This document shows, piece after piece, positions 6,703 through 33,810 of a stretch of DNA of 64,000 nucleotides; position 1 is the stretch's first letter, and each line of letters begins with the position of its first letter. The position numbers and the translations under genes were made by a program. The stretch lies in the NCBI RefSeq assembly GCF_003334385.1, contig NZ_QOWN01000018.1; one strand, written 5' to 3'. Source of the stretch: Escherichia coli. GTDB lineage: Bacteria; Pseudomonadota; Gammaproteobacteria; Enterobacterales; Enterobacteriaceae. The notes under the pieces are model-generated. The model did not search any database. It was not told where the DNA came from and saw only the letters and a program-made list of their open reading frames with translations.

Positions 6703-6726
6703 TGCAGCCTCCGAACAATTTTTTAT

Positions 6727-7116: not shown

Positions 7117-7120
7117 GGCT

Positions 7121-7771
<651 letters not shown>

Positions 7772-8525
7772 GATGAAACCCCGCTTTTTTTATTGATCGC
7801 ACACCTGACAGCTGCCTCTAAAATAGAAGCACCAGAAGTACTGACAGATGTTGCACTGCTGTGTGTAGTAATAAATCAGCCCTAAATGGGTAAAATATAA
7901 AACTAATGGATTACATCTGATTTCAATCTAGCCATTACAAATCTTAAATCAAGTGTTAAACATGTAACTAAATGTAACTCGTTATATTAAAATGTTAACC
8001 TTAAGGTTTTATTAAGTTTAGAAATGATAGAAAAGTTGTACATTTGGTTTTTATTGCACAATTTTAAAAAATCATACAAATGGTGATAACTTACTAATAA
8101 TGCATATAAAAAATATTTCGGTGTAGTCCTTTCGTCATGTAAAACGTTCTTGTTTTTTCTCCACACCTCCGTGGACAATTTTTTACTGCAAAAAGACGAG
8201 GTTTGTCACGGCTTGTGCGCAAGACATATCGCAGCAATCAGCGACGGGCAAGAAGAATGACTGTCTGGTGCTTTTTGATAGCGGAAAACGGAGATTTAAA
8301 AGAAAACAAAATATTTTTTTGCGTAGATAACAGCGTATTTACGTGGGTTTTAATACTTTGGTATGAACTAAAAAAGAAAAATACAACGCGCGGGTGAGTT
8401 ATTAAAAATATTTCCGCAGACATACTTTCCATCGTAACGCAGCGTTAACAAAATACAGGTTGCGTTAACAACCAAGTTGAAATGATTTAATTTCTTAAAT
8501 GTACGACCAGGTCCAGGGTGACAAC
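7772..8525. promoter_or_regulatory. csgD-csgB divergent intergenic control region (csgDEFG and csgBAC promoters)
   Basis: 754-bp AT-rich non-coding gap between divergent csgD and csgB; known to carry sigma-S dependent promoters and multiple regulator binding sites. Confidence 0.85.
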
Positions 8526-8981
8526 ATGAAAAACAAATTGTTATTTATGATGTTAACAATACTGGGTGCGCCTGGGATTGCAGCCGCAGCAGGTTATGAT
8601 TTAGCTAATTCAGAATATAACTTCGCGGTAAATGAATTGAGTAAGTCTTCATTTAATCAGGCAGCCATAATTGGTCAAGCTGGGACTAATAATAGTGCTC
8701 AGTTACGGCAGGGAGGCTCAAAACTTTTGGCGGTTGTTGCGCAAGAAGGTAGTAGCAACCGGGCAAAGATTGACCAGACAGGAGATTATAACCTTGCATA
8801 TATTGATCAGGCGGGCAGTGCCAACGATGCCAGTATTTCGCAAGGTGCTTATGGTAATACTGCGATGATTATCCAGAAAGGTTCTGGTAATAAAGCAAAT
8901 ATTACACAGTATGGTACTCAAAAAACGGCAATTGTAGTGCAGAGACAGTCGCAAATGGCTATTCGCGTGACACAACGTTAA
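8526..8981 (+). CDS. csgB: minor curlin subunit / nucleator CsgB
   Basis: Start trimmed to MKNKLLFMMLTILG; curlin repeats (Q/N-rich). Confidence 0.95.
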   Translation: MKNKLLFMMLTILGAPGIAAAAGYDLANSEYNFAVNELSKSSFNQAAIIGQAGTNNSAQLRQGGSKLLAVVAQEGSSNRAKIDQTGDYNLAYIDQAGSANDASISQGAYGNTAMIIQKGSGNKANITQYGTQKTAIVVQRQSQMAIRVTQR

Positions 8982-9021
8982 TTTCCATTCGACTTTTAAA
9001 TCAATCCGATGGGGGTTTTAC

Positions 9022-9477
9022 ATGAAACTTTTAAAAGTAGCAGCAATTGCAGCAATCGTATTCTCCGGTAGCGCTCTGGCAGGTGTTGTTCCTCAGTACG
9101 GCGGCGGCGGTAACCACGGTGGTGGCGGTAATAATAGCGGCCCAAATTCTGAGCTGAACATTTACCAGTACGGTGGCGGTAACTCTGCACTTGCTCTGCA
9201 AACTGATGCCCGTAACTCTGACTTGACTATTACCCAGCATGGCGGCGGTAATGGTGCAGATGTTGGTCAGGGCTCAGATGACAGCTCAATCGATCTGACC
9301 CAACGTGGCTTCGGTAACAGCGCTACTCTTGATCAGTGGAACGGCAAAAATTCTGAAATGACGGTTAAACAGTTCGGTGGTGGCAACGGTGCTGCAGTTG
9401 ACCAGACTGCATCTAACTCCTCCGTCAACGTGACTCAGGTTGGCTTTGGTAACAACGCGACCGCTCATCAGTACTAA
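9022..9477 (+). CDS. csgA: major curlin subunit CsgA
   Basis: 151 aa with Gly-rich N-terminus and SxxxQxGxGNxAxxxQ curlin repeats. Confidence 0.97.
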   Translation: MKLLKVAAIAAIVFSGSALAGVVPQYGGGGNHGGGGNNSGPNSELNIYQYGGGNSALALQTDARNSDLTITQHGGGNGADVGQGSDDSSIDLTQRGFGNSATLDQWNGKNSEMTVKQFGGGNGAAVDQTASNSSVNVTQVGFGNNATAHQY

Positions 9478-9535
9478 TACATCATTTGTATTACAGAAAC
9501 AGGGCGCAAGCCCTGTTTTTTTTCGGGAGAAGAAT

Positions 9536-10300
<765 letters not shown>

Positions 10301-10394
10301 GTTTCTGAACAACTCACGTTGCTGAGCAGAAAAATGCGATTTAACCAAAAAGCCTGCTGTACACTTAAGAAACAAGAAGGTGTAAGGAGGCGTT

Positions 10395-10928
10395 ATGAAA
10401 ACGCGTATTCATGTTGTGCAGGGTGATATTACCAAACTGGCCGTTGATGTGATTGTGAATGCGGCTAATCCGTCATTAATGGGAGGCGGCGGCGTCGATG
10501 GGGCCATTCATCGCGCAGCGGGTCCGGCCCTGCTGGATGCTTGTTTAAAAGTCAGGCAACAGCAGGGCGATTGCCCTACGGGGCATGCCGTTATTACGCT
10601 TGCAGGCGATCTTCCCGCTAAAGCCGTAGTGCACACCGTCGGGCCAGTCTGGCGTGGTGGTGAACAAAACGAAGACCAGCTTTTGCAGGATGCCTATCTC
10701 AATAGCCTACGACTGGTGGCGGCAAACAGCTATACGTCAGTGGCTTTTCCTGCAATCAGTACTGGGGTTTATGGTTACCCTCGTGCGGCAGCGGCTGAAA
10801 TCGCAGTAAAAACCGTTTCAGAATTTATTACCCGTCACGCTTTACCCGAACAGGTATACTTTGTCTGTTATGATGAAGAAAACGCCCACCTCTACGAAAG
10901 ACTCCTTACCCAACAAGGAGATGAATGA
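10395..10928 (+). CDS. ymdB: macrodomain O-acetyl-ADP-ribose deacetylase YmdB
   Basis: 177 aa with macro-domain motifs ([18 protein letters not shown]). Confidence 0.93.
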
Positions 10929-12351
10929 TTTGCCCCGGCTGGCGAGCGCGGTGCTGCCACTGTGTTCGCAACATCCCGGTCAGTGTGGCCTTTTTCCTCT
11001 GGAGAAAAGTCTGGATGCGTTTGCCGCCCGGTATCGTCTGGCCGAAATGGCAGAGCATACGCTCGATGTTCAGTATTACATCTGGCAGGACGATATGTCG
11101 GGTCGGTTACTGTTTTCCGCCCTGTTAGCCGCAGCAAAGCGTGGCGTTCGCGTCCGTTTGTTGCTGGACGACAACAATACGCCCGGACTTGACGACATTT
11201 TACGCTTGCTTGACAGTCATCCACGCATTGAAGTCCGGCTTTTTAATCCTTTCTCGTTTCGCTTGCTGCGTCCGCTTGGTTATATCACCGACTTTTCCCG
11301 TCTTAATCGCCGTATGCACAATAAAAGTTTCACTGTCGATGGCGTGGTGACCCTGGTGGGAGGACGAAATATTGGTGATGCCTATTTTGGAGCAGGGGAG
11401 GAGCCACTTTTTTCGGATTTAGATGTCATGGCAATAGGACCCGTGGTAGAGGACGTTGCCGATGATTTCGCCCGCTACTGGTATTGCAAATCGGTTTCAC
11501 CCTTACAGCAGGTGCTGGATGTCCCGGAGGGTGAAATGGCGGATCGCATCGAGTTACCCGCCTCCTGGCATAACGATGCCATGACGCATCGTTATTTACG
11601 CAAAATGGAATCCAGTCCATTTATAAATCATCTGGTTGATGGAACATTGCCGCTTATCTGGGCGAAGACACGTTTATTAAGTGATGATCCGGCGAAAGGG
11701 GAGGGCAAGGCAAAACGGCATTCACTGTTACCGCAGCGCCTGTTCGATATCATGGGCTCACCCAGTGAACGCATCGATATTATCTCTTCCTATTTTGTAC
11801 CGACACGCGCAGGTGTGGCGCAACTCTTACGGATGGTGAGAAAAGGGGTAAAGATTGCGATCCTAACCAATTCTCTTGCCGCTAACGATGTTGCTGTCGT
11901 CCATGCCGGATACGCGCGCTGGCGCAAAAAATTGCTCCGCTATGGCGTGGAATTATATGAACTCAAGCCGACGCGTGAACAAAGTAGTACGTTACACGAT
12001 CGCGGCATAACCGGTAATTCCGGAGCCAGCCTGCATGCTAAAACCTTTAGCATCGATGGTAAAACGGTGTTTATCGGCTCTTTCAATTTCGATCCGCGTT
12101 CAACATTGCTCAATACTGAAATGGGCTTCGTGATAGAGAGCGAAACGCTGGCACAGTTAATTGATAAACGCTTTATTCAGAGCCAGTATGATGCGGCCTG
12201 GCAGCTCCGTCTGGACAGGTGGGGACGGATCAACTGGGTTGATCGTCATGCAAAGAAAGAGATTATTCTCAAAAAAGAACCCGCCACCAGTTTCTGGAAG
12301 CGGGTTATGGTCAGACTGGCGTCGATATTGCCCGTGGAATGGTTATTGTAA
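10921..12351 (+). CDS. clsC: cardiolipin synthase C (phospholipase D family); start may instead be the TTG at 10930
   Basis: Two HKD motifs ([18 protein letters not shown]); overlaps ymdB stop (ATGAATGA). Confidence 0.88.
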
Positions 12352-12358
12352 ATGTGGC

Positions 12359-13516
12359 TTAACGGGCTGGTGCTTTATCGTTCTCACGCTTAACAACCGG
12401 TTTACCAGAGAACAAAAACTTCAGTAACGGGATGCGCAAATGAATTTCATACAGAATTATCGCAATCCCTACTACAAATATCAGGCCACAGAGAAAACCA
12501 AGCCAGTTGGAGGTGATGTGCGGTGTAATGTATGCGCCGAAAAACAGCGTTAACGGGTGGTGAACCAGATAGATAAACAGCGATGCGTTAACAAAATAAG
12601 TCACCCGCGCTGACTGGAAGTTAAGCAAACGGTGGCCAAAGGAGAAGACCACATTCACCATCCACAGACCGAGGACCATGGTGATCACCGACTCGGTTTC
12701 GTACATCCAGGCATCGCCACTGCCATAGCGCTGGTTGAGTAAATAAGCGACAAACGCCAATGCTGCTGCAAGGGTACAGCCACGAGACGGCGTGGTAAAC
12801 AAGGCTTTAAGATGAGGGAAAATGAAAGCCAGTGCGCCGAGGATAAAGAACGGCAAATAAAACAGCGTTTGCATGACAATAAAATTGAACATGCCATTAC
12901 TCAGAATGGGCGGATACACAATAAAAATCGTTCTTCTTATTACCGCATAACCGATGCCGAGGCATAAAAAAATCACCGATAGTTTTACCATCGAGAATTT
13001 TTTATTCGTTTTATCAGAATTTTCTAAATTATTTCTGATGCGCTTAAATATCCATACGCACAGCGTCGTCATGACCACTAACACCAGTAAAAACCACAGG
13101 TGTGATATTAATTCCCAGGCCAACGTATTATATTTGTCATACAATGACAGCCCAGGCCAACTTTCCGCTTTTCCTTTGACATATTGCAGCATAATAAATT
13201 GCGGTAATGTCAGTAGGGGGATGGCTGTTAACATCGGGATACCTACACGTTCGACACGTACTTTCCACCATTTTTTCAAGGGATAGCGTAAAAAAAGCAT
13301 GTAGGAAAAGTAGCCGGATATAACGAAAAATACCTGCATGCGGAACGAGTGGATGAAGTCATTAAAAAGGGTCAGCCACAATGATGATTCGGCGCTATTC
13401 ACATGCCATGTATGGCTCGAATAGATTAAAGAAATATGAAAAGGTATCCCTAACAACATCAGCCAGGCGCGGATGGAGTCGAGGAAATATTCACGTTGCG
13501 CGGGTACTGGGTTCAT
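12359..13516 (-). CDS. opgC: osmoregulated periplasmic glucan succinyltransferase OpgC
   Basis: 385-aa multi-pass membrane acyltransferase-3 family protein. Confidence 0.9.
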
Positions 13517-13798
13517 ATATGGTTAACTAATCTCGGATTTTTCGTCTTATCCCTGTCGGGTTATGCCTTTAGGCTTGTTGCCATAGTGACACCGACCTGA
13601 CCGCGCCAGGCGCAGGCTTCAAGGTTTTTATGCATAGCATCATCGCTACCACTAACCAGAATGGAAGCGTCTGTAAGACGGTTGATAAATAAATTTGCTG
13701 GCAAACCCTACACGAAGTCGATGCTTCTGTCTTTAGGAGAAGCACGGAAAGTGAAAACGGTTGCAATCAGGTGCTTAATCCATGAGCCAGCGTGCTGA

Positions 13799-17981
<4,183 letters not shown>

Positions 17982-18838: not shown

Positions 18839-19887
18839 TCAGTTCGATACCTGGGGTATTCGACGACGACGTAGACTGTTCCATGAATAGACTGCGTTGA
18901 ATAACACTACGCCAGCGGTGACGAGAAATACCGCTCTGAAACCGTAGTTCGCTGAAATCGCTGCTCCCATCAATGGTCCGGTAACGTTGCCAATATCACG
19001 AAACGATTGGTTATAGCTGAAGATACGCCCGGCGATCTGGTTGCTCGAGTTGTAAACCAACAGTGTCTGTACGGCGGGGAGTAGTGCACCATCGGCGGCA
19101 CCGAGCAAAAAACGTAAAATCCCAAGTTGCAATGGCGTCTGAACGTAAGACATTGGGATCAACAGCAGTACAGAAAAGATCAGCGCTGTAATCAGGATCT
19201 TTTCGGGTCCGATTCGATCGCCAAGTTTGCCGAGTCGTGGTGCACTTAGCAGAGCCGCCACGCCTGGCACCGAGGCGATCATGCCACTGATAAAGGCGAC
19301 GTTACTGACGTTACCCGCCAGTTCGCGGACATACAGCGTCAGAATGGGGGCAATTGAGCCCGTCGCCACCTGGATGATTAACGTAGTGACAAACAGGCTG
19401 AGTACCAGTTTCGGGTTTTTAAGTGATGTCACCACTTCCCGCATGTGCAGCATCTCTTTTTTGCTGACCGGCTGGAATTTTTCTCTGATGCAAAACAGGG
19501 TGACGAAAAAGCAGAGTATGAGCACACTGGCGGTAATAAAGAATACCGGACGTAAGCCGTAGCTATCGGCGAGCAGGCCGCCAGCCATTGGGCCGAGCAA
19601 CGCACCACTAACGCCGCCTGTGGAGAGCGTACCCAGCGCCCAGCCGCTTTTATTACGCGGTACTTGTGTGGCGATAAGAGCATTAGCGTTGGGGACAAAT
19701 CCGCCAAGTAACCCAAGAAGCGCCCGCAGGATCAAAAACTGCCAGATATTTTGTGCCAGCCCCATCAACACCATCACGATGCCCATGCCGAGGGCAGAGC
19801 GTAATAGCATGAGTTTTCGGCCTTTACGGTCGGCGAGTCCACCCCAAAACGGTGAGGCGATGGCCGAAAATAAAAATGTAATGCTGA
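18839..19887 (-). pseudogene. mdtG: mdtG 3' fragment (C-terminal about 350 codons of MFS efflux transporter MdtG), separated from its 5' end by the inserted element
   Basis: Reading frame of the 323-aa ORF continues upstream without an ATG to 19887, where MdtG-like sequence (..[17 protein letters not shown]..) is interrupted. Confidence 0.85.
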
Positions 19888-20289
19888 TATTTGTTCCCTA
19901 AATACACCATGAGAACATACCTGTTAATAACAGGACAATATCAGGTGAATGATTATGCAATTCAACGGTGTTTTTCCAAGTATCTAAGCAGTTTTACACA
20001 GATTCTATGCAGTATCGGTATAGTCTCTTTTTAGCATAACTTATTGATATCTATAAAGAATCTGTGAAGTCTCTTTTCAGGGTAAACTGTATCGTGTTAG
20101 TCGTCCCTCTCTCGACTCCTAGAAAAGTGCTATATACAGGGCTATATAACGATATATAGATAGTTGGTCACATGGTGTAACTATCAAGAAACTTAACGAT
20201 TTCCTACGTGAAAGTTAGAAAGTGATGGTTATAGTTACCCTCCTAAAATCTTCATAGCTCCTTCATAACCAGTCTTAAAAGGACTTCCT

Positions 20290-20404
20290 TATGAGACACT
20301 TTCAACGTAACGGTAGAATGCACCTTCCAAGTGTCTCATAAGCTTGTTTTTGAATTATGAGACAGCTAAACTTATGAGACCAACTTTTGAGACTTCTTAG
20401 GGGG
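20290..20404. promoter_or_regulatory. res-like cluster of resolvase-type half-sites (TGTCTCATA, matching TGTCYNNTA) overlapping the promoter of the small serine recombinase gene
   Basis: TATGAGACA at 20290-20298 and inverted TGTCTCATA at 20332-20340; further direct copies at 20357-20365, 20373-20381 and partial at 20387-20394, ending just 5' of the RBS/ATG at 20409. Confidence 0.55.
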
Positions 20405-20408
20405 ATGT

Positions 20409-20957
20409 ATGGCGGTGATTGGTTATTGCAGGGTATCAACACAAGACCAGACTGTAGACAACCAGAAACTACAGATAGAGAAGGTTCACAAGGTCGATAA
20501 ATGGTTTATTGATGAGGCTGTCTCAGGAGCTACAAAGGCCACCAGCAGAGATGGTTTTAGAGACATGATGAACTATGTAAGGTGTGACGATACGTTAGTT
20601 GTGGTAGCTATTGACCGTTTAGGGCGTAATACCGTTGATGTGCTCTCTAACGTGGAGGCACTACAGACTAAAGGTGTGAGGGTTGTTTCTCTACGTGAAG
20701 GTTTCGACTTATTAACACCAATCGGTAGAGCAATGCTTACTATGATGGCTGGTTTAGCTGACCTTGAAAAAGACCTTATCAGTGAACGTAGAAAGGCTGG
20801 TATTGAACGTGCTAAAGCTGAAGGGGTTCACATGGGGAGACCTGTAAAAGCTTCTTCAGAGACTGTAAAGATGCTTATCTCACAAGGTAAAACGAGGTTG
20901 CAGATTCAGGAAGAGCTAGGAATCTCTAGAGCAACTTATTACAGACTTGCTAAATAA
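20409..20957 (+). CDS. small serine recombinase (resolvase/DNA-invertase family) with C-terminal HTH
   Basis: 182 aa; N-terminal catalytic motif VIGYCRVSTQDQ (active-site Ser), resolvase core, C-terminal HTH LGISRATYYRLAK; RBS GGGGGA upstream. Confidence 0.85.
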   Translation: MAVIGYCRVSTQDQTVDNQKLQIEKVHKVDKWFIDEAVSGATKATSRDGFRDMMNYVRCDDTLVVVAIDRLGRNTVDVLSNVEALQTKGVRVVSLREGFDLLTPIGRAMLTMMAGLADLEKDLISERRKAGIERAKAEGVHMGRPVKASSETVKMLISQGKTRLQIQEELGISRATYYRLAK

Positions 20958-21300
20958 GTTACTGAATAGTTACATGGATGTAGCTGATATTTGGCTTTTT
21001 TGCAAAGGGGGTCACATAGCTGGTGTGACGGGTACTTAGCAGGTATAGACCTGTGATAGATATTTTCGAAGATTCGGGGAAGATGAGATTCAAAGAGGGC
21101 TAGTCATTTTTTATAAAAATTTTCAGAATCTGAAAAGTTACTGTACAGAATATATACAGACATCTTTAAAGTATCTGTAAAGACTTTTAAGATAAAAGAT
21201 AGATATCCAGAAAGGATATCCGTTTAGAAAGACTGTTAAGTATCTCTTAAAAGAGAGTAAACCTTGTCAATAGTGATTGCAATAAAAATTTTTATTTCTT

Positions 21301-21963
21301 ATGTCAATTGAGCATATTTTAATCGGGAAGCATCATGGGGGTTCTGATTACTGGAGAACTCCATTTTTGTTATTTAAGAATCTAAACTGTGAATATATTT
21401 TCACGCTGGATGGTGCTGCAACTAAGCACGATACGTTATTACCCCGCTTTACGGATGATATTCACAATCAATCGTGGATTGGCGAAAGGGTGTTCTGTAA
21501 CCCGCCGTACAGCGATATTCCGTCGTTCCTCATAAAAGCGTCTGAGGCAGATTTAGCGGTATTCCTGATACCGTATAGAGCCAACACCAGCTACTGGCTT
21601 AGGCACATTTACAGCAATAACCACTGTCATGAAATCCGTATTCTTCATCGTGCAGTTAAATACCTTCCACCAGCAGGCCATAACGGGCTTACTATTCGTT
21701 CACCGTTTCCAAGTGCAGTCATTGTTTTTAAAAAAGAACCACGCAGGCATGAAATTACGCAGATGATTTGCTGTGCTGATACATTGCTACCGTTAACCAT
21801 CATTAACAGAGGAGGCTTAAGAGGAAGACCCACCATTTACCCACCTGAGACGCTCGACAGCTTCATAAAACTATACAGGCAAGGAAAACCCATTAAGTGC
21901 ATTGCAGATGCTCTCAGAATGCCTCTGAGCACGTCATACAGGATTGCGCAAAGGTTGAGCTAA
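21301..21963 (+). CDS. phage-type DNA N6-adenine methyltransferase (Dam/T1-like family) with C-terminal HTH-like extension; orphan (no cognate nuclease recognised)
   Basis: 220 aa; motifs DYWRTP, FTLDGAA and catalytic CNPPYS (NPPY), ...FPSAVIVF; extra C-terminal approx 70 aa with HTH-like segment. Confidence 0.75.
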   Translation: MSIEHILIGKHHGGSDYWRTPFLLFKNLNCEYIFTLDGAATKHDTLLPRFTDDIHNQSWIGERVFCNPPYSDIPSFLIKASEADLAVFLIPYRANTSYWLRHIYSNNHCHEIRILHRAVKYLPPAGHNGLTIRSPFPSAVIVFKKEPRRHEITQMICCADTLLPLTIINRGGLRGRPTIYPPETLDSFIKLYRQGKPIKCIADALRMPLSTSYRIAQRLS

Positions 21964-22325
21964 AATTCTCATAAATATGGTCATTTACAAGACAGGTGAT
22001 TCAGATATTAAGAAGTATCCCTGTGAACAATAAATGACCAATCAGTAATTATTCTGTGAAATAATTGTTGCAATTTATAATCACATCTGTTATAGTTTCT
22101 ATATGGGCTGATAAAAAAGTTCATGTCTTGAAGTGGTAACACTTGGGGAGGTGTCAGATGGTTGGCGTATAAAACCTCTCATTCATGGTATACCTCAGCG
22201 TTTTAATCATCGTACTGTTTCAGGCATGGACTTCTTTATCAGTCCATCAATCCCCCAGATATTTTAATCACACAGGCTAATCGGTTTTATCCGGTTGGCC
22301 TTTTCACATATGAGGTATTTTATGA

Positions 22326-23294
22326 ATGAAAAAAGAAACTAATGCTTTTATTATGGTAGATAAACGAGTTGCACAATTCCCTAAAACATTAAAGCCAATT
22401 GACCGCTTGGTATATTTCACTATGCTGGATGGTGCTGATTATTACGAATCTAAGTTCGGGAGATATGCACCAAGTATTGACTATTTGATGGTTATGTCTG
22501 GTGCTACACGTAATACAGTTATTGACTCTCTGAAAAGACTTGAGTCACACAGGCTTATTGAGAAGACCAATATCAAAGGGCAGCAAAGTATTTTTAAAGT
22601 ATTCACGTTAGATGAGCGTCCAGAAGTCTTATCAGAACCTACCCTTGATGAGCGTCGTAGAGTCAAATTATCAGGTCAACCAGAATCTGACACTAACCCA
22701 ACCAAAAATTGGTTACCTACCCAACCAGAATTTGGTTACCTACCTAACCAGAAATTGGTTACATGTAATACTGAATATAAAGACAAAAATATAAAAACTA
22801 AAGAAGAAAGACTAAAAGGGAACTTTGAAGAAGAATCTCTTAAGAAGGGAGCTTCGCTCTGTGATTCACATGAATGTGATATTAAAGAAGATGACTTTCT
22901 TTCTTTGGATGAATTAAATGATTTTCTCTCTATGAATGAATCTGACCTTGATAGTGAAGCTACTAAAGAGGTCGTTAAAAAGGAAGATAAAATCTCTGAT
23001 GTGATTGCTAGTAGTGACCATAAAAACACACAGTGCCCCGCCACTGATGATGAGATGGACCCCTTCGATGATGATGAAGAGGATGAAGAGTCAGAACGTG
23101 AAAAAGCCATTAAGAGGGTAGAGAAGAAAAAGAGATTCGAGCTTGCAAGACAAAAGAACAAAGTATCGGGTTTAGACCCATTCGATGACAGTGAAGATGA
23201 TTATTATCTTTCACCGAGAAAGAAACAAACCCAGGATGACAAGAAGCAAAAAATTAAACCGAAGATGTATTTTGCTGGTGGAGGTATGCGCTAA
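22326..23294 (+). CDS. putative replication initiator (winged-helix N-terminal domain, acidic C-terminal tail) with origin-like iterons embedded in its coding sequence
   Basis: 322 aa; N-terminal winged-helix-like region; internal DNA iterons plus AT-rich tract resembling the lambda O/ori arrangement; C-terminus very rich in D/E. Confidence 0.55.
   Translation: MKKETNAFIMVDKRVAQFPKTLKPIDRLVYFTMLDGADYYESKFGRYAPSIDYLMVMSGATRNTVIDSLKRLESHRLIEKTNIKGQQSIFKVFTLDERPEVLSEPTLDERRRVKLSGQPESDTNPTKNWLPTQPEFGYLPNQKLVTCNTEYKDKNIKTKEERLKGNFEEESLKKGASLCDSHECDIKEDDFLSLDELNDFLSMNESDLDSEATKEVVKKEDKISDVIASSDHKNTQCPATDDEMDPFDDDEEDEESEREKAIKRVEKKKRFELARQKNKVSGLDPFDDSEDDYYLSPRKKQTQDDKKQKIKPKMYFAGGGMR
22676..22820. 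repeat. Origin-like iteron array (3-4 direct repeats of about 23 bp, each containing the palindrome AACCARAAWTTGGTT) followed by an AT-rich tract
   Basis: AACCCAACCAAAAATTGGTTACCTAC / CCAACCAGAATTTGGTTACCTAC / CTAACCAGAAATTGGTTACATG at 22695-22765, partial unit at 22677-22693, then AT-rich 22766-22820. Confidence 0.65.
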
Positions 23295-23584
23295 TGAGAG
23301 AATATAACGGTGAAAAACGATACAAAGATTATCTATTAAGGCGCTACAGCATTTCTCGTGAAGGTCATCTTCTGAAAGATACTCATGGGGAGGTTTACCG
23401 GATTCGACCGAAGAAGGAAGGAAAGAATTATTTCTTTTTTGATGGTGTGACAGATTTAAAGATTGACGCTTTGAGGTTTGCAGTGCTGTATCATTATGAT
23501 ATCTGGGATTCGGTCCACCAGCTACGATTAAAAGACGGTGACCCCGGTAATCTGAGGGCCACCAATATCATCACAAAACGTTAG
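23294..23584 (+). CDS. small protein, possibly degenerate HNH/NUMOD-like; function unknown
   Basis: 96 aa; start overlaps stop of upstream gene (TAATG); C-terminal segment LRLKDGDPGNLRATN loosely resembles HNH_3-type motifs. Confidence 0.4.
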   Translation: MREYNGEKRYKDYLLRRYSISREGHLLKDTHGEVYRIRPKKEGKNYFFFDGVTDLKIDALRFAVLYHYDIWDSVHQLRLKDGDPGNLRATNIITKR

Positions 23585-23903
23585 TTTGTTTTACCATCAT
23601 CAATCGTAATTGTGATTTCATATTTGAAAAGCTTAATGCTGAAATTGAATCGTGTACTTTTGGCGATAATCATTTTTAAAAGCTGATACACCAGAAGCAC
23701 CAGAAACACAAAGCAACCTAAGCTTGCGAATCTGTGAGATTCAGCAATTGTTTCAAGAAAGCCCATTAATTCCCCTTATTTATCAAAGGGAATGACCTGT
23801 ATCAGCCCCTATAACCATAATATCATGTAAATGAGATGTTGACAATATGTTAAATAAATGTTAAGATTGTAGTATGAGTAAGAGATTTAAGGAGATTTTT
23901 ACA

Positions 23904-24194
23904 ATGACTCACACAGTTACGCGCCTTTTGCCAGAGGCATTTGAACGACTGGCAGCAATCAAAGCCAAATACCCTGATATGAAGCACACGGCGCTTGTTG
24001 GAGAGCTTTTAAAAGAGTCGGTAGCCCTGACCCCTTTCGATAACGTTAAGGGCGTTGCAGAGGGTTCTAAGGCCATCAGAATCACAACAGGCCAACTGGA
24101 ACTACTCAAAGCGCAGTCCGCAGTAGCAGGTTGCTCAATGATTCAGGTGTTAAGCACTAAGGTTCATCAACTGGCGGATAAATTGGAGGTTTAA
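23904..24194 (+). CDS. hypothetical protein, possible ribbon-helix-helix DNA-binding regulator
   Basis: ORF track 23874..24194; the internal ATG at 23904 is preceded by RBS AAGGAG; predicted beta-strand/helix pattern (TVTRLLPEAFERLAAIKAK). Confidence 0.45.
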   Translation: MTHTVTRLLPEAFERLAAIKAKYPDMKHTALVGELLKESVALTPFDNVKGVAEGSKAIRITTGQLELLKAQSAVAGCSMIQVLSTKVHQLADKLEV

Positions 24195-24580
24195 TGTATG
24201 ACTTTTATAAACATCGTGACCATTTGGTAAGATTTGACGGTAGAGTCTGGAAAGACATAACAGAAACCAATAAACCCAAGTTTACCCACCAGCAATTAGC
24301 CTCAAGATTTGATATCTGGACTGAAGCACAAAAAGATAATGGTGATTTCGAGTTTATCAGGGGTTTTGATTATGCTTACGAAGATGACCTTAAAGACGCC
24401 ATTAAATTAATTGAAAATTTTAATGGAAATAATTCTGGTGACAAACACAAAGCCAATGGTAATCGGTATGACAGGGAGTTAATTCTTGATGCCATTTCCA
24501 GAGGTCAATCACAAAGTTATATTTCTGAGAAATACGGCTTATCACGTAGTCAATACTACAAGATTAAAGCGTCTGTGTAA
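24194..24580 (+). CDS. hypothetical protein with C-terminal HTH (regulator or terminase-small-subunit-like)
   Basis: 128 aa; start coupled to upstream stop (TTAATG) with RBS GGAGG; C-terminal HTH ISEKYGLSRSQYYKIKA. Confidence 0.5.
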   Translation: MYDFYKHRDHLVRFDGRVWKDITETNKPKFTHQQLASRFDIWTEAQKDNGDFEFIRGFDYAYEDDLKDAIKLIENFNGNNSGDKHKANGNRYDRELILDAISRGQSQSYISEKYGLSRSQYYKIKASV

Positions 24581-24717
24581 GCCTGTGAGAATGAGTGAGA
24601 CTCAAAGATGAGCTACCCTATTACTAAGGTGTCTCACTCCCTCTGTAACCCGCATGGTTACTGGCCTCAGAATGGCTATTTTGGCAGATTTAAGATGTGT
24701 TTTAGAGGAATTTAAAA

Positions 24718-25041
24718 ATGAACAACTTCCCATTACAAATTTTCGTTGATAACGACACCGCTCTGATGATTCAGGCTTTCACTGATTCCGGTGTATCAAT
24801 TGACTTTGACAGGCTGTTAGAGTTGATGGCTGATAATGCAGAAAACATCTCTGACTTTATTCAGTCGGTGGAGTTTAACGAGCCTCGAATGATGCTACCA
24901 ATTAAAGACAGCAACATGAAAAGATTGGTTATCGAGCAAACGAACAAATACAGCGTTAGCCCTGAAAGATATCTCAAGGCAGCTATAGCAATTTTGTGCG
25001 CTGACAATATTTTGGTGACGGATTCGAAGGTGGTGCATTAA
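24718..25041 (+). CDS. hypothetical protein
   Basis: 107-aa ORF with RBS AGAGGA; no recognisable motif. Confidence 0.45.
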   Translation: MNNFPLQIFVDNDTALMIQAFTDSGVSIDFDRLLELMADNAENISDFIQSVEFNEPRMMLPIKDSNMKRLVIEQTNKYSVSPERYLKAAIAILCADNILVTDSKVVH

Positions 25042-25118
25042 TGGGCTTAATAATTGCTTGGACAGCTTTGGGTTTATTTGTTGGTTGCTGGGTAGGTAAC
25101 ACAGTAAATAAGAATTGA
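25041..25118 (+). CDS. candidate small hydrophobic peptide (25 aa, single predicted TM helix), translationally coupled to upstream ORF
   Basis: ATG overlaps upstream TAA (TAATGG); encodes MGLIIAWTALGLFVGCWVGNTVNKN; below the size cut-off of the ORF track. Confidence 0.3.
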   Translation: MGLIIAWTALGLFVGCWVGNTVNKN

Positions 25119-25535
25119 TGTTGCCAATCTGTTAAAAAGCTGTTGACAAATAACCTTAAGCATGACATAATTTTAATTATGGGAGAGTAATTCTCTCTTA
25201 TATTTCTTTCAATAATCCGATGGATGGATGGATATTCTGAGTTGGTGAGGTATGTTCTATACCGAACATTCTGAAAGGTGCAATGCTTTTCGCTACATGA
25301 CCTCTTATATAACCTGAGAGGTCATCTCGAAAAGTACTCTTGTTCATTCGTTATTGAATCCTTTAGATGTTTTAATTTCTTCACCTTATGAATAGCCCTT
25401 TATAAGAAATTATCTAGGGCTATTCAGTTTTTAAAAAGCATACTTGGCAAACCGCCTTTTAAGTCTCTTCTAAGTTCGTAGGCTGTCAGGTGTGCTTTTT
25501 AAAAACTGAATATACTTAGAAGAGGAAATGAAATA

Positions 25536-26246
25536 ATGGCAAATGACATTTATATTAGTGGAAGAAAAATTGATAGCTTCGGTGACTGGTCGCCACAGAC
25601 TGAACATCCAGCTATCGTTATTCAGCGTAAAGAACACGATGCGAGAATTGAGCTTGAGCAAGAGCTAAAGATGTCACCAAAGCAAATTACCTTTGTGTCT
25701 CCTGAGCCTCAAGAGATGCCTGATGTATGCAAGAGTGAAGCATTGCTTGAGCTTGAAAAGAAATATTTCCCAGCTTTAAAAGCACAGCGTCTTAGATTAG
25801 ATGACGCTTACAGCAAAGTTACCCTGATGCAATCAGCTATTGAACCGTCAGAATTTGAGATTCAGGATGAATTGTCACAGAAACCATTTGTTTATTACCA
25901 ATATGCAGACAATGATGGTTTTGGTACTTTTCCTGAGAATATCCCAGACGCGATTAGTAGTCTTCCTGATGGATATCGAATTGTGAAGATGGTTAAAGCT
26001 TCAAGGGGTGCTGGTCAATTTATTTATATGACCAATAAGAGCGATGAAGAACTCGCTGAACTTGCTAGACAGAACATCTTGGCATCACGTAACAAGCAGC
26101 TTGATAGTGCTAAGTTGTATCTCTCAAGAGAGCTTCAGGCTATGAAAGAGCTTGTTAGTGAATATGAGTCGCAGAAGAAGATTGCTATGCAAGCTGATAT
26201 TGAGCAGTTAGTGAAGATTTCTCAGAAGTATAGTAAAGCACTTTAA
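25536..26246 (+). CDS. hypothetical protein with C-terminal coiled-coil
   Basis: 236-aa ORF with RBS GAGGAAA; no recognisable catalytic motif. Confidence 0.5.
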   Translation: MANDIYISGRKIDSFGDWSPQTEHPAIVIQRKEHDARIELEQELKMSPKQITFVSPEPQEMPDVCKSEALLELEKKYFPALKAQRLRLDDAYSKVTLMQSAIEPSEFEIQDELSQKPFVYYQYADNDGFGTFPENIPDAISSLPDGYRIVKMVKASRGAGQFIYMTNKSDEELAELARQNILASRNKQLDSAKLYLSRELQAMKELVSEYESQKKIAMQADIEQLVKISQKYSKAL

Positions 26247-26270
26247 TTATGAATTAAGAAGAGGTGATTA

Positions 26271-26480
26271 ATGTTTGAAGAACGTTTAGAGACTATTCGG
26301 TCTGTTTGTGAAAACTTAAAGTTACAAACCAAGCCAGCCTTAAGAATTAAAACCAAACATCAAATTATCACCTCACACAAACCAAAAACACGCAAGATTC
26401 CAAAGTGGTGTATTGACCGTATTCCTTCTGATGCTCAAATCATAGGTGAAACGGAATTACATTATCTTGTCCGACATTAA
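26271..26480 (+). CDS. hypothetical small basic protein
   Basis: 69-aa ORF with RBS GAGGTG. Confidence 0.4.
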   Translation: MFEERLETIRSVCENLKLQTKPALRIKTKHQIITSHKPKTRKIPKWCIDRIPSDAQIIGETELHYLVRH

Positions 26481-26577
26481 AAATTGGTTGGGTAAAATCA
26501 ACGGGAGAGATTATCGAGTGACATCGGTAGTTTCTCCTTTTTTTGTATATGAACACTTAAGAGGTGAAAAAATATGA

Positions 26578-28749
26578 ATGGCACAGTTTAAAGTTGATGA
26601 TTTTCTGATTGAGCTAGGTTTTAACTCTCAGAGGGTTTTAAAAGGTCTGGAAAAAGCCGAGAAACAAACGATGCAGGTAGCATCACGAATTGAGAAGCGA
26701 TTGAATAAAGCTTTTAAAGTTAACCCTACGCCTTTAAATGATTCTCTCAAGGTCATGGAAAGAAATGTCGATAAAACTGTTTCCAAGATTGAGCAGCGTC
26801 TTAAAAACACTAAAGCGTTTAAGATTAAAACGGAAATTGAGGATACTTTAAAGCCACTTAAACAACCGAGACAGCCACGAATTAGCGGCAACAGAGCAAT
26901 CACAGCAGCACATAGTGTGAATATGTCTAAGCTTGGTGATATTAATCCGCTGATGGCTAAAATGTTTAAAGCACAGTATTACAGCTTAAGCGGTAAGGCT
27001 GGTAATATTGGAAGTGAAAAGTTTAACGCTGAACTTGCAAAATTAAATCAATCTCTTCGTGAAACGTTGAATAAACTCAGGTCACAGACAAAGACCGCCA
27101 GCATCAGCAAAGTAAATGATTCCTTTAATAATCTTGCAAGCAATGCAATTAAGTTATCTGGTGCATTTTACTCTGTGATGGGTGCTCTTAACGCTTACAA
27201 GGCCATTATGAATGCAGGTCTTAAACGAGATTCCGCACAGAGAGCCGCTAAGTTTGTACTTGGTGATAAAGCATCTGAAGCTGAAACATTTATCAGGGGA
27301 CTGGCTGACAAGACAGGTCTTAATATCTCTGAAGGACTATCAAGCTACGCTAAGTTTGCAGCAGGTGCTCAGGGTTCTATGTCACAGGAACAGACACAGG
27401 AGCTATTTGGTAATGCAACGGCTATGAGCCGTTTAATGGGGCTTTCTAACGATGAACTAAACGGCATTTTGAAAGCTTTTGAGCAGATGGCTTCTAAGGG
27501 CAAGATTCAGGCTGAAGAATTACGTGGGCAGTTAGGTGACCGTATGGCTGGTGCATTTAAGCTATTCGCTGAAGCATTGGGTATGACTGCTACAGAGCTT
27601 GATGCAGCCATGAAAAACGGGAAGGTACTTTCCGCTGATACTCTCCCTAAAGTCGCTAAACAGATGGGCTTGATGATTGATAAAGCGGGTGGCTGGGCTG
27701 AAGTCGCTAAGAGCACCCAGACAGCTTTAGGTAAGTTAGCAAACAACTGGGATGATACGATGGTTAAAATCTTCTCAGGTTCACAGGATGAGTTAAACGG
27801 CTTCTTATCCAGCCTGGGTAGCCTGCTTAGTGAAATGGGGATGAGTTCTTCTATCGCTGGTGATGCTATCGGTGGACTTATCGACATGCTTAAAGCTGGT
27901 GTAGATGATATTCGCGTATTCAATAACACCATTGAAGGCTGGATTTTACAGGTTAAAAAGTTCTATTACAGCCTTGATGACACTAAACGAAAACTACTTG
28001 ATGAAGTCGGTGATGGTTTTATCAATTTTGTCAAAGGTCTTGCTATAGCGTTATCTGCAAAGACGCTATTCAGTGCCACTACAGGGGTGATGAACCTGAC
28101 AAGAGCAATCACAACGTTAGGTACAAGAGCTAATCAGGTGGCTGGTCAGGTAACTACTGGTAAAGGTGGTGGAAAACTGAAAGGTGTAGCTGGTGGTGTA
28201 GGTAGTGCTCTTGCAATTGGTTATGCTGATGACGGTTATGAAACAGCGTTAGCATTAGCTTCAATGATTCCACAAATCAGAGGTGTCACCCTTGGTTTAT
28301 ATGCATTGAAGAAAGCACTGGATTTTATGAATCAGGAAGTAGTCAAAAACGCTAATATGCATCCATCTGGGGTAGGTGTGGGTAGTGACTTTAATCCTGT
28401 GTATTCTGGTGACCCTAATAAACCGAATATGATTAACGAAGGATGGAGTAAAATTTTTAATTCAATGGGTGAATTGTTTAACAATGCCACAATGAATATT
28501 GCAAGATTCAATCATCCAGAATTAAACAACATTAAGCAAGATTCAGCATTAACGAGTGCAGATATTCAGAGTCTGAGGGATGAAATTAGTGCTTTGAGTA
28601 AACGTATTCAGGAGCCTGTGAAAGTTTCACTTGGTGGTGAAGTTGCCATTAAACCAGATGAAACCAGCTTTATGACCTTTAGCAGTAATATCTACGACCA
28701 ATATGCAGAAGCTACGCTATTAAGTTCATCATTCCCAGAAGATGATTGA
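26578..28749 (+). CDS. phage tail tape-measure-like protein
   Basis: 723 aa; coiled-coil N-terminal part; segment AEELRGQLGDRMAGAFKLFAEALGMTATELDAAMKNGKVLSADTLPKVAKQM resembles the conserved tape-measure N-terminal domain; Gly-rich middle. Confidence 0.65.
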   Translation: MAQFKVDDFLIELGFNSQRVLKGLEKAEKQTMQVASRIEKRLNKAFKVNPTPLNDSLKVMERNVDKTVSKIEQRLKNTKAFKIKTEIEDTLKPLKQPRQPRISGNRAITAAHSVNMSKLGDINPLMAKMFKAQYYSLSGKAGNIGSEKFNAELAKLNQSLRETLNKLRSQTKTASISKVNDSFNNLASNAIKLSGAFYSVMGALNAYKAIMNAGLKRDSAQRAAKFVLGDKASEAETFIRGLADKTGLNISEGLSSYAKFAAGAQGSMSQEQTQELFGNATAMSRLMGLSNDELNGILKAFEQMASKGKIQAEELRGQLGDRMAGAFKLFAEALGMTATELDAAMKNGKVLSADTLPKVAKQMGLMIDKAGGWAEVAKSTQTALGKLANNWDDTMVKIFSGSQDELNGFLSSLGSLLSEMGMSSSIAGDAIGGLIDMLKAGVDDIRVFNNTIEGWILQVKKFYYSLDDTKRKLLDEVGDGFINFVKGLAIALSAKTLFSATTGVMNLTRAITTLGTRANQVAGQVTTGKGGGKLKGVAGGVGSALAIGYADDGYETALALASMIPQIRGVTLGLYALKKALDFMNQEVVKNANMHPSGVGVGSDFNPVYSGDPNKPNMINEGWSKIFNSMGELFNNATMNIARFNHPELNNIKQDSALTSADIQSLRDEISALSKRIQEPVKVSLGGEVAIKPDETSFMTFSSNIYDQYAEATLLSSSFPEDD

Positions 28750-28905
28750 TTTAACGGTGTTCTACGTGAATAAAGCAAAGTTAATACCCGCACTAAAAAT
28801 TATTTTTTACGTAGCACACGCTTAACAGAGAAAATACTTATATATCAAAGGCTTGGTTAAAAATGATTAAAATACACTAAGCCTTTGAAATCAAAGGAGA
28901 ATTTA

Positions 28906-29694
28906 ATGATTTACTCTAATCAACTTCGTTACAGTGGCAAAGATGGTGTTTACTTCCATCTACAAGGCCAACCAGATAATTTCTTGTCACTATCAGCAAC
29001 AGAGAACATGGAATTTGACAGCCCTATGATGGTGACCACTCAAAATATGCAATCAGGGCAGACTGTAACAGATAATGTAATGCGTTCACCCAGAACTATT
29101 TCAATCAGTGGTGTGGTTGTAGTTGGTGAATCCGGTAGTATCCTCATCTCAAGAGATAATAAGCTGGTGGAAAACTTCATCGACACTCTTGAAAGCTGGC
29201 GTGACCAGAAGCAAATTATTTCGGTCATCTGTAAAGACGGAATTAAAATTGATGATTCTATTATTACGAGTTTTAAAGCCTCTAAAGATGTTGGTATTTC
29301 AAATGGTCTAAGAGTCCAGCTAACTTTTCAGGAAATTAACTTTAAAGCAATTGTAGGGCAAACTGATGTTTCAGCAGCTACTGGCAAAGCTGCCACCACG
29401 AATGACGGTGGTGTGACCAGTAAGAAGAATGCAGGTAACGTGACCACTGAACGCAATAACGCGCCTATGCTATCGTGCAAAGAGTTAATGAATATTAGCG
29501 ATGTATCCGGTTACGTTCCGGCTATCAGAAATGATATTCTCGATGCTCAGATTAAGTGCAATAAAGCTTGGAAGCTGGACTATTCAGACTTAACAGAAGC
29601 TGAAAAAACCAACGTCACCAATGCTAATAGTAACGCTGGTCGAGTAGCTTCAAAGCTTAAAAAGTACTCAGTGAATCCTAATAAGAGATACTAA
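28906..29694 (+). CDS. hypothetical protein downstream of tape-measure gene (possible tail-associated protein)
   Basis: ORF track 28885..29694; ATG at 28906 preceded by RBS AAAGGAGA; gene order after the tape-measure gene. Confidence 0.45.
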
Positions 29695-31220
29695 ATCTCT
29701 ACTACATCAACATCTATTAAACCCCTCTCAGTGACTTCAGAAAGCGACTGTATAGCCTCTGTAACGTTGTCTGAGGGGTTTTCTGTTATAGGTAGGTCAA
29801 TTACCTTGCCGTTGTGAAAAGTCACTTTACAGCGACGTTTAGCGGCATCTATAACTATTTCTTTGAGTACGCCCTTGATAAGTAGCTGTGTCTCTATCAT
29901 CCCTTCCTTTGTTGTCCTGTCAATATCTTTGAGGCTTCCAGTTGTGATGGCCTTTATCCGCTGTGTTTCCTCTTCGATATCATGATTGAGTTTTGATAGC
30001 GCATTCTTCATATCACGTAATTTCTCTGTGATAATTGTCATGTCATCGAGTTCAATAGCGAGTTCTGCCATTTTTGAGATTTTACGCTGCAAATCTTCAC
30101 GCTGTAATTTAAGGCTATCAATAGTGTCAGTATTTTCAGTTTCAAAACGGTCGCATAATGCGAGCATGTAGAGAATAGTTGCATCCGTTTGCTTACGACT
30201 GATAGCCTTTGCACTACACCTGTTAGCTGAACGATTAGGGCATCTGTACATCCCAAAACGTTTTAAGGCATATCCACCAAGAACAATAGTAGCCCCACAC
30301 TCAGAACATTTGATGATACCCCTGAACAAGTTGACTGATAGCGGATTACTTGATACAGAAGCCCTACCATATTGCCCTGTGTTCAGTTGCTGTACTCGAT
30401 AGAATAGTGACTCACTGATTATTGCGGGGTAGTAACCCTGAACTTCTTCACGTCCAGCAGGTGTGAAACATCCAATCACAGCACGATTTCTGAGTAGTTT
30501 CTTTACAGCAGTATCAGACCACCCCTTTTGTTTGGGTGTGTATTGATTCAATGACAAGTGGCCTTCATCGTTTAAAGTTCTGGTGATAGCCCAAAAGCTT
30601 AAACCCTGTAATCTCAGGTCAAATGCTCGTTTAACAACTTCCACTTTATCGGGGATGATAGTGAATGTTCGACGGTCATCATTCAGCCTTAACCATGCAG
30701 GACAACGCCTAGATACCTTGATACCTTCGGAGATGAGTTCTTTTTTACGGTTCCATGCAGCTTGGACACGCTCAGACTTCCTCAGACTTTCCTCATGCGC
30801 CCGCTGCATTATCAGAATGCTTTTAATCAGGGATAACGGGTCTTTTAAACTTTCTCGTGTGTAATGTTCACCATCGGACAGGGTGACTACATCTACACCA
30901 GCCCTTAAGATACGGCGTAATAGCTCAGAAGCAATATCAATATCCTGACGTGACAGACGGTCTAAACTCTCGATTAGTAGCGTATCACCAGCTTTAACAA
31001 GCCCTTTCTCGATAGCGGTTAGAAAGTCACCTAGACCACCTTTCAGGTGCTTACCACTAAAAGCACTTTTCCCCAAATCTTTAAAGCTCAAGGATGAATC
31101 CAAGTAAAACTCAGGGTTCTTATCAAGCCAGTCAGTAACCAGCTTAGATTGTCTGCGTACAGAGTCCCCTTTTAGTTGTCGTTCACTTGAAAATCTGATG
31201 TAGCTGATTGCCCGTCTCAT
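29691..31220 (-). CDS. large serine recombinase (serine integrase)
   Basis: About 510 aa; N-terminal resolvase-type catalytic domain ([12 protein letters not shown], active-site Ser), recombinase domain, zinc-ribbon-like Cys cluster (CSECGATIV...CPNRSANRC), C-terminal coiled-coil; first ATG at 31220, track start at 31226 is TTG. Confidence 0.88.
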
Positions 31221-31243
31221 ATTCAATACCTAAAATGATGTGT

Positions 31244-31441
31244 TTAGGAACCCATTATACTGAAGACAATACCGGACCACATATTCAGGGCGGAGTGACC
31301 GGTAACGCCAAGCTGCTCAACGTAGAGGGGTAAGAAGGGCATTACCAGACTGAAGGCGGCACCGGTAAGAAAACAGCCTAGCCAGGCGACGATCAGGTTT
31401 CGTTTCCAGTTTATAGGGGTGTCATTTTCACAGGGTGACAT
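31244..31441 (-). pseudogene. mdtG: mdtG 5' fragment (N-terminal 58 codons of MdtG fused to 7 element-derived codons before a stop)
   Basis: Starts [16 protein letters not shown]... as MdtG; sequence diverges at the junction near 31260. Confidence 0.85.
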
Positions 31442-32757: not shown

Positions 32758-33810
32758 ATGCCAGTGTTACACAACCGCATTTCCAACGACGCGCTAAAAG
32801 CCAAAATGTTGGCTGAGAGCGAACCGCGAACCACCATTTCGTTTTACAAGTATTTCCACATCGCCGATCCTAAGGCGACCCGTGACGCTTTATATCAGCT
32901 GTTTACCGCGCTGAATGTTTTTGGGCGAGTGTATCTGGCGCATGAGGGCATTAACGCGCAAATCAGCGTACCTGCGAGCAATGTTGAAACATTTCGCGCG
33001 CAGCTCTATGCCTTCGACCCGGCTTTAGAGGGTTTACGCCTGAATATCGCGTTGGATGATGACGGGAAATCCTTCTGGGTACTGCGCATGAAGGTACGCG
33101 ATCGCATTGTTGCCGACGGTATTGACGATCCTCACTTTGATGCCAGCAATGTTGGTGAGTATCTGCAAGCGGCGGAAGTGAACGCCATGCTTGACGATCC
33201 CGATGCACTATTTATCGACATGCGTAACCACTATGAGTATGAAGTGGGGCACTTTGAAAACGCGCTCGAAATTCTGGCAGATACCTTCCGTGAGCAGCTG
33301 CCAAAAGCAGTCGAGATGATGCAGGCACATAAAGATAAAAAAATCGTCATGTACTGCACCGGCGGCATTCGTTGTGAAAAGGCCAGTGCCTGGATGAAAC
33401 ATAACGGATTCAACAAAGTCTGGCATATCGAGGGCGGAATTATTGAATACGCCCGTAAGGCGCGCGAGCAGGGCTTGCCGGTGCGTTTTATTGGCAAAAA
33501 TTTTGTTTTTGACGAGCGGATGGGCGAACGTATATCGGATGAGATTATCGCGCATTGCCACCAGTGCGGCGCGCCGTGCGACAGCCATACCAACTGTAAA
33601 AATGATGGCTGCCACCTGCTGTTTATTCAGTGTCCAGTATGCGCGGAAAAATACAAAGGTTGTTGTAGTGAGATTTGCTGCGAAGAAAGCGCGTTACCGC
33701 CAGAAGAACAGCGACGCCGTCGGGCAGGACGTGAAAATGGCAATAAGATCTTTAATAAGTCTCGTGGACGTCTGAATACAACACTGTGCATTCCTGATCC
33801 AACAGAATAA
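32758..33810 (+). CDS. trhO: rhodanese-domain tRNA uridine(34) hydroxylase TrhO (YceA)
   Basis: Start trimmed to [16 protein letters not shown] (350 aa); rhodanese active-site Cys (YCTGGIRCE). Confidence 0.9.

Follow-up and report, generated by a model that had tools for sequence, protein, structure and literature searches.

An 11.4-kb serine-integrase element in mdtG of Escherichia coli, a probable satellite of virulent Felix-O1-like phages

The stretch of DNA analysed here (the window, 64 kb) is part of an Escherichia coli chromosome with the gene order opgH-yceK-msyB-mdtG-lpxL-trhO. The mdtG gene is interrupted, both of its fragments are located on the minus strand, and between them lies an integrated element of about 11.4 kb that carries its own integrase, replication module and two phage tail genes (Table 1). 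In what follows, this element is interpreted as a probable satellite of virulent phages. The split of mdtG by an inserted block had been recognised earlier from the letters of the sequence alone (the sequence-only reading), and both fragments were confirmed. The left edge of the element given in that reading, 19888, also holds. The right edge does not; it moves from 31259 to 31263, and the N-terminal part of mdtG comprises 59 codons rather than 58.

The tetranucleotide CTGA, proposed earlier as a core common to both junctions, was found at 19884–19887 and at 31260–31263. Restoring mdtG by joining 19887 directly to 31260, as had been suggested, fails when done literally, because two CTGA copies are kept and the four extra bases break the frame. 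If 19887 is joined to 31264 in silico, a 408-amino-acid (aa) open reading frame (ORF) is obtained, which is identical to K-12 mdtG at 1227 of 1227 nucleotides. The K-12 attB site reads …TAATGCTGAAGAC…, the attL junction …TAATGCTGA/TATTTGTTCCC… and the attR junction …CCATTATACTGA/AGAC… (the slash marks the junction), and the reconstructed attP is GGAACCCATTATACTGATATTTGTTCCC. The base next to the core on its left differs (G/A), which indicates that the crossover took place inside CTGA. Around the CT of the core (C/T), the reconstructed attP forms an imperfect inverted repeat, with 16 of the 24 positions symmetric, in agreement with the palindromic attP expected from the first inspection. In strain A1 (CP029328), an element that is about 90% identical (approximately 10% diverged) is located in mdtG with identical attL and attR junctions. 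Other carriers are MSB1_9I (LR890508) and the strain of assembly GCA_012738655.1, whose element is the very one described here. The exact restoration of the empty site, the short core with a central dinucleotide and the diverged A1 copy with the same junctions support site-specific insertion by the 511-aa large serine recombinase encoded at the right end of the element, to which the attachment sites had already been attributed. The precise attB × attP recombination, the 2-bp crossover and the duplication limited to the shared core are features of large-serine-recombinase elements. As read from the divided coding sequence, the insertion inactivates mdtG. The mdtG site is occupied in at least four complete RefSeq genomes, and the annotation there is generic. 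Full-text literature searches revealed no description of such an element, at the mdtG locus or elsewhere, as the sequence-only reading had also supposed; papers outside the searched library could hold one.

Table 1. Features of the integrated element and its junctions with mdtG (positions in the 64-kb window; a dot in the strand column means no strand)
Feature	Position	Strand	Remarks
mdtG, C-terminal fragment	18839–19887	-	codon 60 to stop; ends with CTGA (4 nt), the attL copy of the core
attL	19862–19915	.	attB half (…AATGTAATG) + CTGA core + attP half (TATTTGTTCCCTAAATACAC)
Integrated element	19888–31263	.	11,376 bp including one core copy; 39.4% GC; GATC-free
Variable cassette	20237–20997	+	res-like TTATGAGAC repeats 20288–20400; small serine recombinase/resolvase coding sequence 20409–20957, 182 aa
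pac-like block (packaging-signal-like)	20998–21141	+	homologous to the Felixounavirus terminal-repeat right-boundary region, Bas63 71516–71671
Conserved non-coding block	21160–21240	+	matches Bas63 79780–79840; upstream of the methyltransferase-initiator operon
Dam-family N6-adenine methyltransferase	21301–21963	+	PF05869; C-terminal helix-turn-helix (HTH)
Replication initiator, 322 aa	22326–23294	+	N-terminal winged helix, acidic C-terminus
Origin inside the initiator gene	22696–22817	.	three 23-bp iterons 22696–22764, then AT-rich 14-bp repeats 22774–22817
Four small ORFs, function unassigned	23294–25041	+	23294–23584; 23874–24194; 24194–24580; 24718–25041
Promoter and leader	25143–25535	+	sigma-70 promoter 25143–25171; terminator hairpin 25178–25202; structured untranslated leader
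236-aa core protein	25536–26246	+	family-specific; mostly long coiled-coil helices and a small alpha/beta domain
69-aa core protein	26271–26480	+	conserved; function unassigned
Tape-measure protein, 723 aa	26578–28749	+	PF20155
Tail-tube initiator	28885–29694	+	PF21821 Dit_like; 262–269 aa; probable start 28906; Bas63 gp18 homologue
Large serine recombinase (integrase), 511 aa	29691–31226	-	Resolvase, Recombinase and Zn-ribbon (Zn_ribbon_recom) domains; phrog_95; N-terminal motif YIRFSSERQ
attR	31235–31290	.	attP half (GTGTTTAGGAACCCATTATA) + CTGA core (31260–31263) + attB half (AGACAATACC…)
mdtG, N-terminal fragment	31264–31441	-	codons 1–59

The gene inventory drawn up at first sight was reproduced: two serine recombinases, a Dam-type methyltransferase, an iteron-bearing initiator, a tape measure, and seven or eight ORFs without matches; the tube initiator, the pac-like block and the probable helper are additions to that reading. 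Capsid, portal, terminase, sheath, tube and lysis families were not among the profile matches of the element proteins, in line with the reported lack of capsid, terminase, portal and lysis genes. The initiator is weakly similar to HTH_36 and matches the PHROG replication-initiator and O-like families. Each of its 23-bp iterons is an internal palindrome, and the layout of the origin, with iterons and an AT-rich tract within the initiator gene, resembles that of lambda O/ori. The methyltransferase is accessory and is missing from the Salmonella member of the family. A PADLOC search of the element matched only this orphan methyltransferase and no other defence family, and no relaxase was found in the element.

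The origin of the tail genes can be traced. The phage DNA matches of the element are only 216 records, all of the Felix-O1 type. The matching phage gene is located directly downstream of the phage tape-measure gene. Cryo-electron microscopy of phage Bas63 identified the product of that gene as the tube initiator, which sits as a hexamer on the baseplate hub, and indicated that the C-terminal 25 residues of the tape measure touch the hub (PMC12609058). The level of identity between the tube initiator of the element and Bas63 gp18 is 68% for amino acids and 83% for nucleotides. More than 50 consecutive residues are identical within the tube-like domain, and the C-terminal baseplate extension has diverged. 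The tube-initiator alleles of the family show 82–94% nucleotide identity to the Bas63 gp18 gene, and the near-identical stretches in several members point to repeated recombination with infecting phages. The tape measure has 31% identity overall to Bas63 gp17 and is conserved in three places: the first ~50 aa, a stretch in the middle and, at the C-terminus, LLSSSFPEDD (consensus LLSSS(F/Y)PE(D/E)), which contacts the hub in Bas63. The tape measures of the family are 682–727 aa in length versus 742 aa in the phage. When the remaining ORFs of the element were compared with all Bas63 ORFs using tblastn and family hidden Markov models, no homologue beyond the tape measure and the tube initiator was detected; a marginal match between a 106-aa ORF and bas63_0048 failed a pairwise check and was rejected. 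The sole full-length match of the tape measure is record GU169904.1, labelled Staphylococcus phage SA1, which is also among the Felix-O1-type matches. Either the label or the content of this record looks inconsistent with its relatives.

Two non-coding blocks of the element are also shared with these phages. The first is the pac-like block: in five of the five members tested, 157–166 nt are homologous to positions 71509–71671 of Bas63 (E values from 1e-10 to 8e-19). The phage records D4 and SPJ41, which come from different laboratories, have identical sequence at both ends (581 bp and 613 bp, respectively). In the D4 source paper, direct terminal repeats were assigned by PhageTerm (PMC11737134). 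The D4 and SPJ41 repeats map to Bas63 positions 70977 to ~71560, which places the right repeat boundary, …GGGCTACC/, inside the block copied by the elements; the element sequence near 21,03x in this block is GGGTACTT/AGCAG. The second block (81 nt) is present in 253 phage records, all of the Ounavirinae type, and in no other phages. It corresponds to a divergent intergenic region at ~79.8 kb of Bas63, the best 36 nt being 97% identical (35/36), and contains a GATATCC/GGATATC palindrome and CTKTWAAR repeats. Clusters of CTKTWAAR occur in the Bas63 terminal repeat (70977–71560), in the divergent intergenic regions at 33475–33701 and 79618–79866 of Bas63, and at 21150–21260 of the window; these repeats may be binding sites for a phage protein. 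To judge from the matches, both non-coding blocks of the element are copied from the genome of the putative helper.

The composition of the element is that of the phage. Its guanine-cytosine (GC) content is 39.4%, compared with 39.0% in Bas63 and 50.4% in the E. coli flanks, which confirms the AT-rich block noticed at the outset, and the GC content falls from ~50–57% outside to 35–44% inside across the junctions. The cosine of codon frequencies to those of the element is 0.958 for Bas63 and 0.800 for the host flanks. The site GATC is absent from the element, where ~40–48 copies are expected, and from five more members; the flanks contain 200. Bas63 also has none in 87 kb (~300 expected), and the lack of this site has been published as characteristic of the genus (PMC4690856, PMC5477317). 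The GATC-free stretch at 19730–31391 is 11.66 kb in length, seven times as long as the second longest of the window. Avoidance extends to palindromic hexamers with at least four G/C, with 1 seen against 43 expected in the element, 11 against 213 in the five members and 24 against 318 in Bas63, compared with 308 against 419 in the flanks; composition-matched non-palindromic hexamers in the element are at expectation (43 seen, 43 expected). Over all 64 palindromic hexamers, the Spearman correlation of avoidance with the phage is 0.77 for the family and 0.26 for the flanks. The phage-like composition and avoidance extend over all modules, the integrase and the variable cassettes among them. Transfer in helper particles would account for this helper-like restriction-avoidance pattern, and DNA that, as in the helper, repeatedly enters new cells unprotected would be expected to lack GATC and most G+C-rich palindromes. 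A low-GC stretch (38–41%) is also present at 7001–9000 of the window, upstream of opgH.

The element belongs to a large family. Its core region was matched in at least 473 of the 5426 complete E. coli genomes; a genome holds up to three copies, and every copy is chromosomal. None of the 624 family locations in E. coli genomes is on a plasmid, and a search of the plasmid database PLSDB gave no match to the element. Together with the lack of a relaxase, this leaves an integrative plasmid or mobilisable element unsupported. For the 236-aa protein, homologues from E. coli, Salmonella enterica and E. marmotae fall into 3107 clusters at 90% identity; among species-representative genomes, the homologue was found only in E. 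albertii and one further Escherichia species. The insertion sites of the family are mdtG, yecE and a position beside wrbA, and the integrases are 35–99% identical to that of the mdtG element. The 236-aa gene, the 69-aa gene, the tape measure, the tube initiator and the integrase form a constant core, and the left half is mosaic. Pairwise ratios of nonsynonymous to synonymous substitution rates (dN/dS) range from 0.14 to 0.44 at dS of 0.15–1.6. Judged by these ratios, the family is under purifying selection and consists of working genes, not of a decaying prophage. In strain JKHS016 (L002, CP147059), the family member at 3621–16520 is inserted in yecE (DUF72) and adjoins a lambdoid prophage with a tyrosine integrase, so that this region holds two unrelated elements.

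Several other features of the element deserve description. The cassette at the left end is absent in the JKHS016 member, and two other members (L001 and L003) carry instead a recombinase on the other strand with 35% identity. Ahead of the small recombinase, TTATGAGAC occurs as an inverted pair together with three more direct copies or variants, which resembles a res site; possibly, this is a separate cassette for multimer resolution. The idea that the small recombinase works as an invertible switch was dropped, since the cassette is present, absent or replaced among the members and is not inverted. Among the four small ORFs, the one at 23874–24194 probably starts at 23904, and the product of the one at 24194–24580 has a C-terminal HTH. 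The sigma-70 promoter downstream of them is near consensus (11 of 12 positions, with an extended -10), and the terminator hairpin follows within 7 nt. The 364-nt untranslated leader has a fold z-score of -8.4 relative to shuffled sequences and contains an inverted repeat with 37-nt arms. The arrangement may represent a late operon under antitermination control or else a non-coding RNA. An Rfam scan gave nothing near the gathering scores. The 236-aa protein has zero matches in Pfam, PHROG, NCBIfam and PDB sequences, and for its AlphaFold2 model (predicted local distance difference test score 73) PDB and BFVD yielded no matches other than generic coiled coils. In hundreds of genomes, RefSeq names its homologues ‘transposase’; neither the sequence databases mentioned nor the fold search supports this name. 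A strong terminator at 26503–26538 is located 3′ of the 69-aa gene.

The element has its own integrase and replication module, as satellites in general do, and its only virion genes are those of the tape measure and the tube initiator. An integrated satellite resembling the Vibrio PLE, with a virulent Felix-O1-like myovirus (Felixounavirus, Ounavirinae) as its helper, is the simplest account of the integrase, the separate origin, the tail homologies, the cis blocks and the phage-like composition; we assign this reading a probability of roughly two in three. Of the two options left by the sequence-only reading, a satellite-like element or a deleted prophage, the first is therefore favoured and the second is not, given the recurring layout, the dN/dS values and the phage-like cis blocks and composition. 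Infection by the helper would trigger excision and replication of the element, either directly or by way of helper regulators that act on the helper-like block preceding the methyltransferase-initiator operon. For excision, the integrase may be reversed by a factor encoded by the phage, as in the Vibrio PLE. The helper terminase would then recognise the element's own copy of the terminal-repeat boundary at 20998–21141 and bring satellite DNA into heads made by the helper. The tape measure and the tube initiator of the satellite, which seem to retain the contact surfaces for the hub and the tube of the helper, would replace gp17 and gp18 in tail assembly. This could yield particles suited to delivery of the satellite, or spoil the tails of the helper, or both. 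Finally, injection by these particles would bring the DNA to new Escherichia or Salmonella hosts, and the integrase would insert the element there. The sequence itself establishes the integration, the layout of the origin, the homologies and the composition; that the element is induced, packaged and transferred, and what its two tail proteins do, are inferences.

Several observations weigh against this interpretation. Searches for an excised circle, an attP junction or a copy derived from virions were negative, and attP is absent from the viral and metagenome collections. All metagenome contigs with the left end (7 of 7) are integrated copies, and the IMG/VR matches come from isolate genomes. 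The length of 11.4 kb is approximately one-eighth of a helper headful, and no gene that would change the capsid size or redirect the terminase was identified, the 236-aa protein having given only generic coiled-coil folds. The pac-like function rests on position, and the block could equally be a promoter or an origin. Its centre differs between the phage and the element, and only one boundary of the repeat is represented, since the motif of the left boundary is absent from the 64-kb window. There is no explanation for a satellite bringing a tape measure and a tube initiator of its own, nor for a Dam-family methyltransferase being carried where GATC is missing.

The best surviving alternative, which we nevertheless consider unlikely, is a mobile anti-phage island that is not packaged. 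The tape measure and the tube initiator would both serve as decoys that poison the tail assembly of Felix-O1-like phages, so that infected cells release non-infectious particles, and the island would spread by another route via its integrase. A tube-like domain that is nearly unchanged, joined to a diverged baseplate extension, has a dominant-negative look; interference with tail assembly is known from satellites and prophages (PMC11364771); and the element has no identified gene for packaging or capsid remodelling. However, a defence island would have no use for a copied terminal-repeat boundary, an iteron origin or a phage-like avoidance of GATC and palindromes along its whole length, which takes in the genes for integration and replication. 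PADLOC matched no defence family other than the orphan methyltransferase. Moreover, the roles of defence and satellite are compatible, and PLE has both. It is improbable that the element is unrelated to Felix-O1-like phages in its spread, having travelled by generalized transduction or natural recombination and acquired the tail-gene pair and the non-coding pieces by chance. The mosaic structure, with exchange of segments, and the confinement of the strongest phage nucleotide identity to ~0.5 kb are consistent with such an origin. Nevertheless, composition, codon usage and site avoidance are phage-like over the 11.4 kb and in every variable module, the cis blocks and tail genes are conserved under purifying selection in all members examined, and the range of tube-initiator identity to the phage gene points to repeated exchange. 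The integrase, the phage-type methyltransferase, the O-like initiator and the two tail genes might suggest what is left, after extensive deletion, of a temperate phage with a serine integrase. This is very improbable, as decay, relaxed selection and idiosyncratic deletions are not seen: intact ORFs in the same compact 10–11.5 kb layout recur at several att sites in hundreds of genomes with dN/dS well below 1, the matches of the tail genes are to a strictly virulent genus, and other phage modules are absent even as pseudogenes.

If the element is a satellite, it would work most like the Vibrio PLE. Both are chromosomal, integrate by means of a large serine recombinase, have their own initiator and an iteron origin, and lack capsid and terminase genes; each is matched to one virulent myovirus lineage and has a narrow host range. 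The excision factor of PLE is supplied by the phage (PMC6002521, PMC7145576). The differences concern the host and helper (Escherichia and Salmonella with Felixounavirus here, Vibrio cholerae with ICP1 for PLE), the size (11.4 kb versus ~18 kb) and the initiator, which is RepA_N in PLE and HTH_36/lambda-O-like, with no RepA_N match, in the element. In addition, the element has a tape measure, a tube initiator and a copy of the helper terminal-repeat boundary, and its family uses several integrases and att sites. PLE is further characterised by specific genes (tcaP, capR, nixI, lidI and gpi); the element was set apart from PLE on the basis of its hosts and its phage matches. Thus, the serine integrase agrees with membership in PLE itself, whereas the initiator family, host and helper do not, and the element falls outside PLE.

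Other known systems are less similar. P4-like satellites of Enterobacterales are also ~11 kb in length (PMC8628076), carry a copy of the helper packaging site and need helper virion genes, two features that the element may share. However, P4 has a tyrosine integrase, the alpha primase-helicase, sid, psu, delta, cos and temperate helpers, and no PHROG or NCBIfam match to P4-type genes (alpha, sid/psu/delta) was found in the element. PICI and capsid-forming PICI (cfPICI) are likewise integrated phage-dependent islands, and cfPICI encode part of the virion, the helper giving the rest. Their hallmarks are a tyrosine integrase, AlpA, a primase-replicase, and a terminase small subunit or capsid module, none of which was detected in the element. 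Compared with cfPICI, the element is the reverse, encoding two internal tail proteins and nothing for the head. Tai systems (PMC11364771) and the element may both act on helper tail assembly; Tai proteins are inhibitors, whereas those of the element are homologues of the tape measure and the tube initiator. Taken together, and with the same confidence as the satellite reading itself, the element would add a new family to the phage satellites, a class already known.

A more far-reaching version of this interpretation we favour by a narrow edge. The elements would be the first family of satellites to be recognised for virulent Felix-O1-like phages, resident in Escherichia and Salmonella and present in ~9% of complete E. 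coli genomes. They would be packaged by means of the copied terminal-repeat boundary, and, in a manner unique to them, their own tape measure and tube initiator would rebuild the tail interior of the helper. This enterobacterial counterpart of PLE would have been overlooked under generic annotations, among them ‘tape measure protein’, ‘phage baseplate protein’ and ‘transposase’.

Salmonella typing has Felix O1 and its relatives among its classic phages, and they are also common in cocktails for biocontrol and therapy. If it parasitises or blocks these phages, an element present in about one of 11 E. coli genomes, and in Salmonella, would affect the prediction of phage host range and the success of therapy. 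To our knowledge, satellites of strictly virulent phages come from very few systems, and the family would offer a tractable E. coli counterpart to the PLE–ICP1 pair of Vibrio. It also poses a new mechanistic question, namely the part that a tape measure and a tube initiator, the two proteins that line the tail tube at its bottom, play in DNA delivery or interference. The avoidance of GATC and palindromes would, in turn, provide a simple signature for finding hidden satellites of virulent phages.

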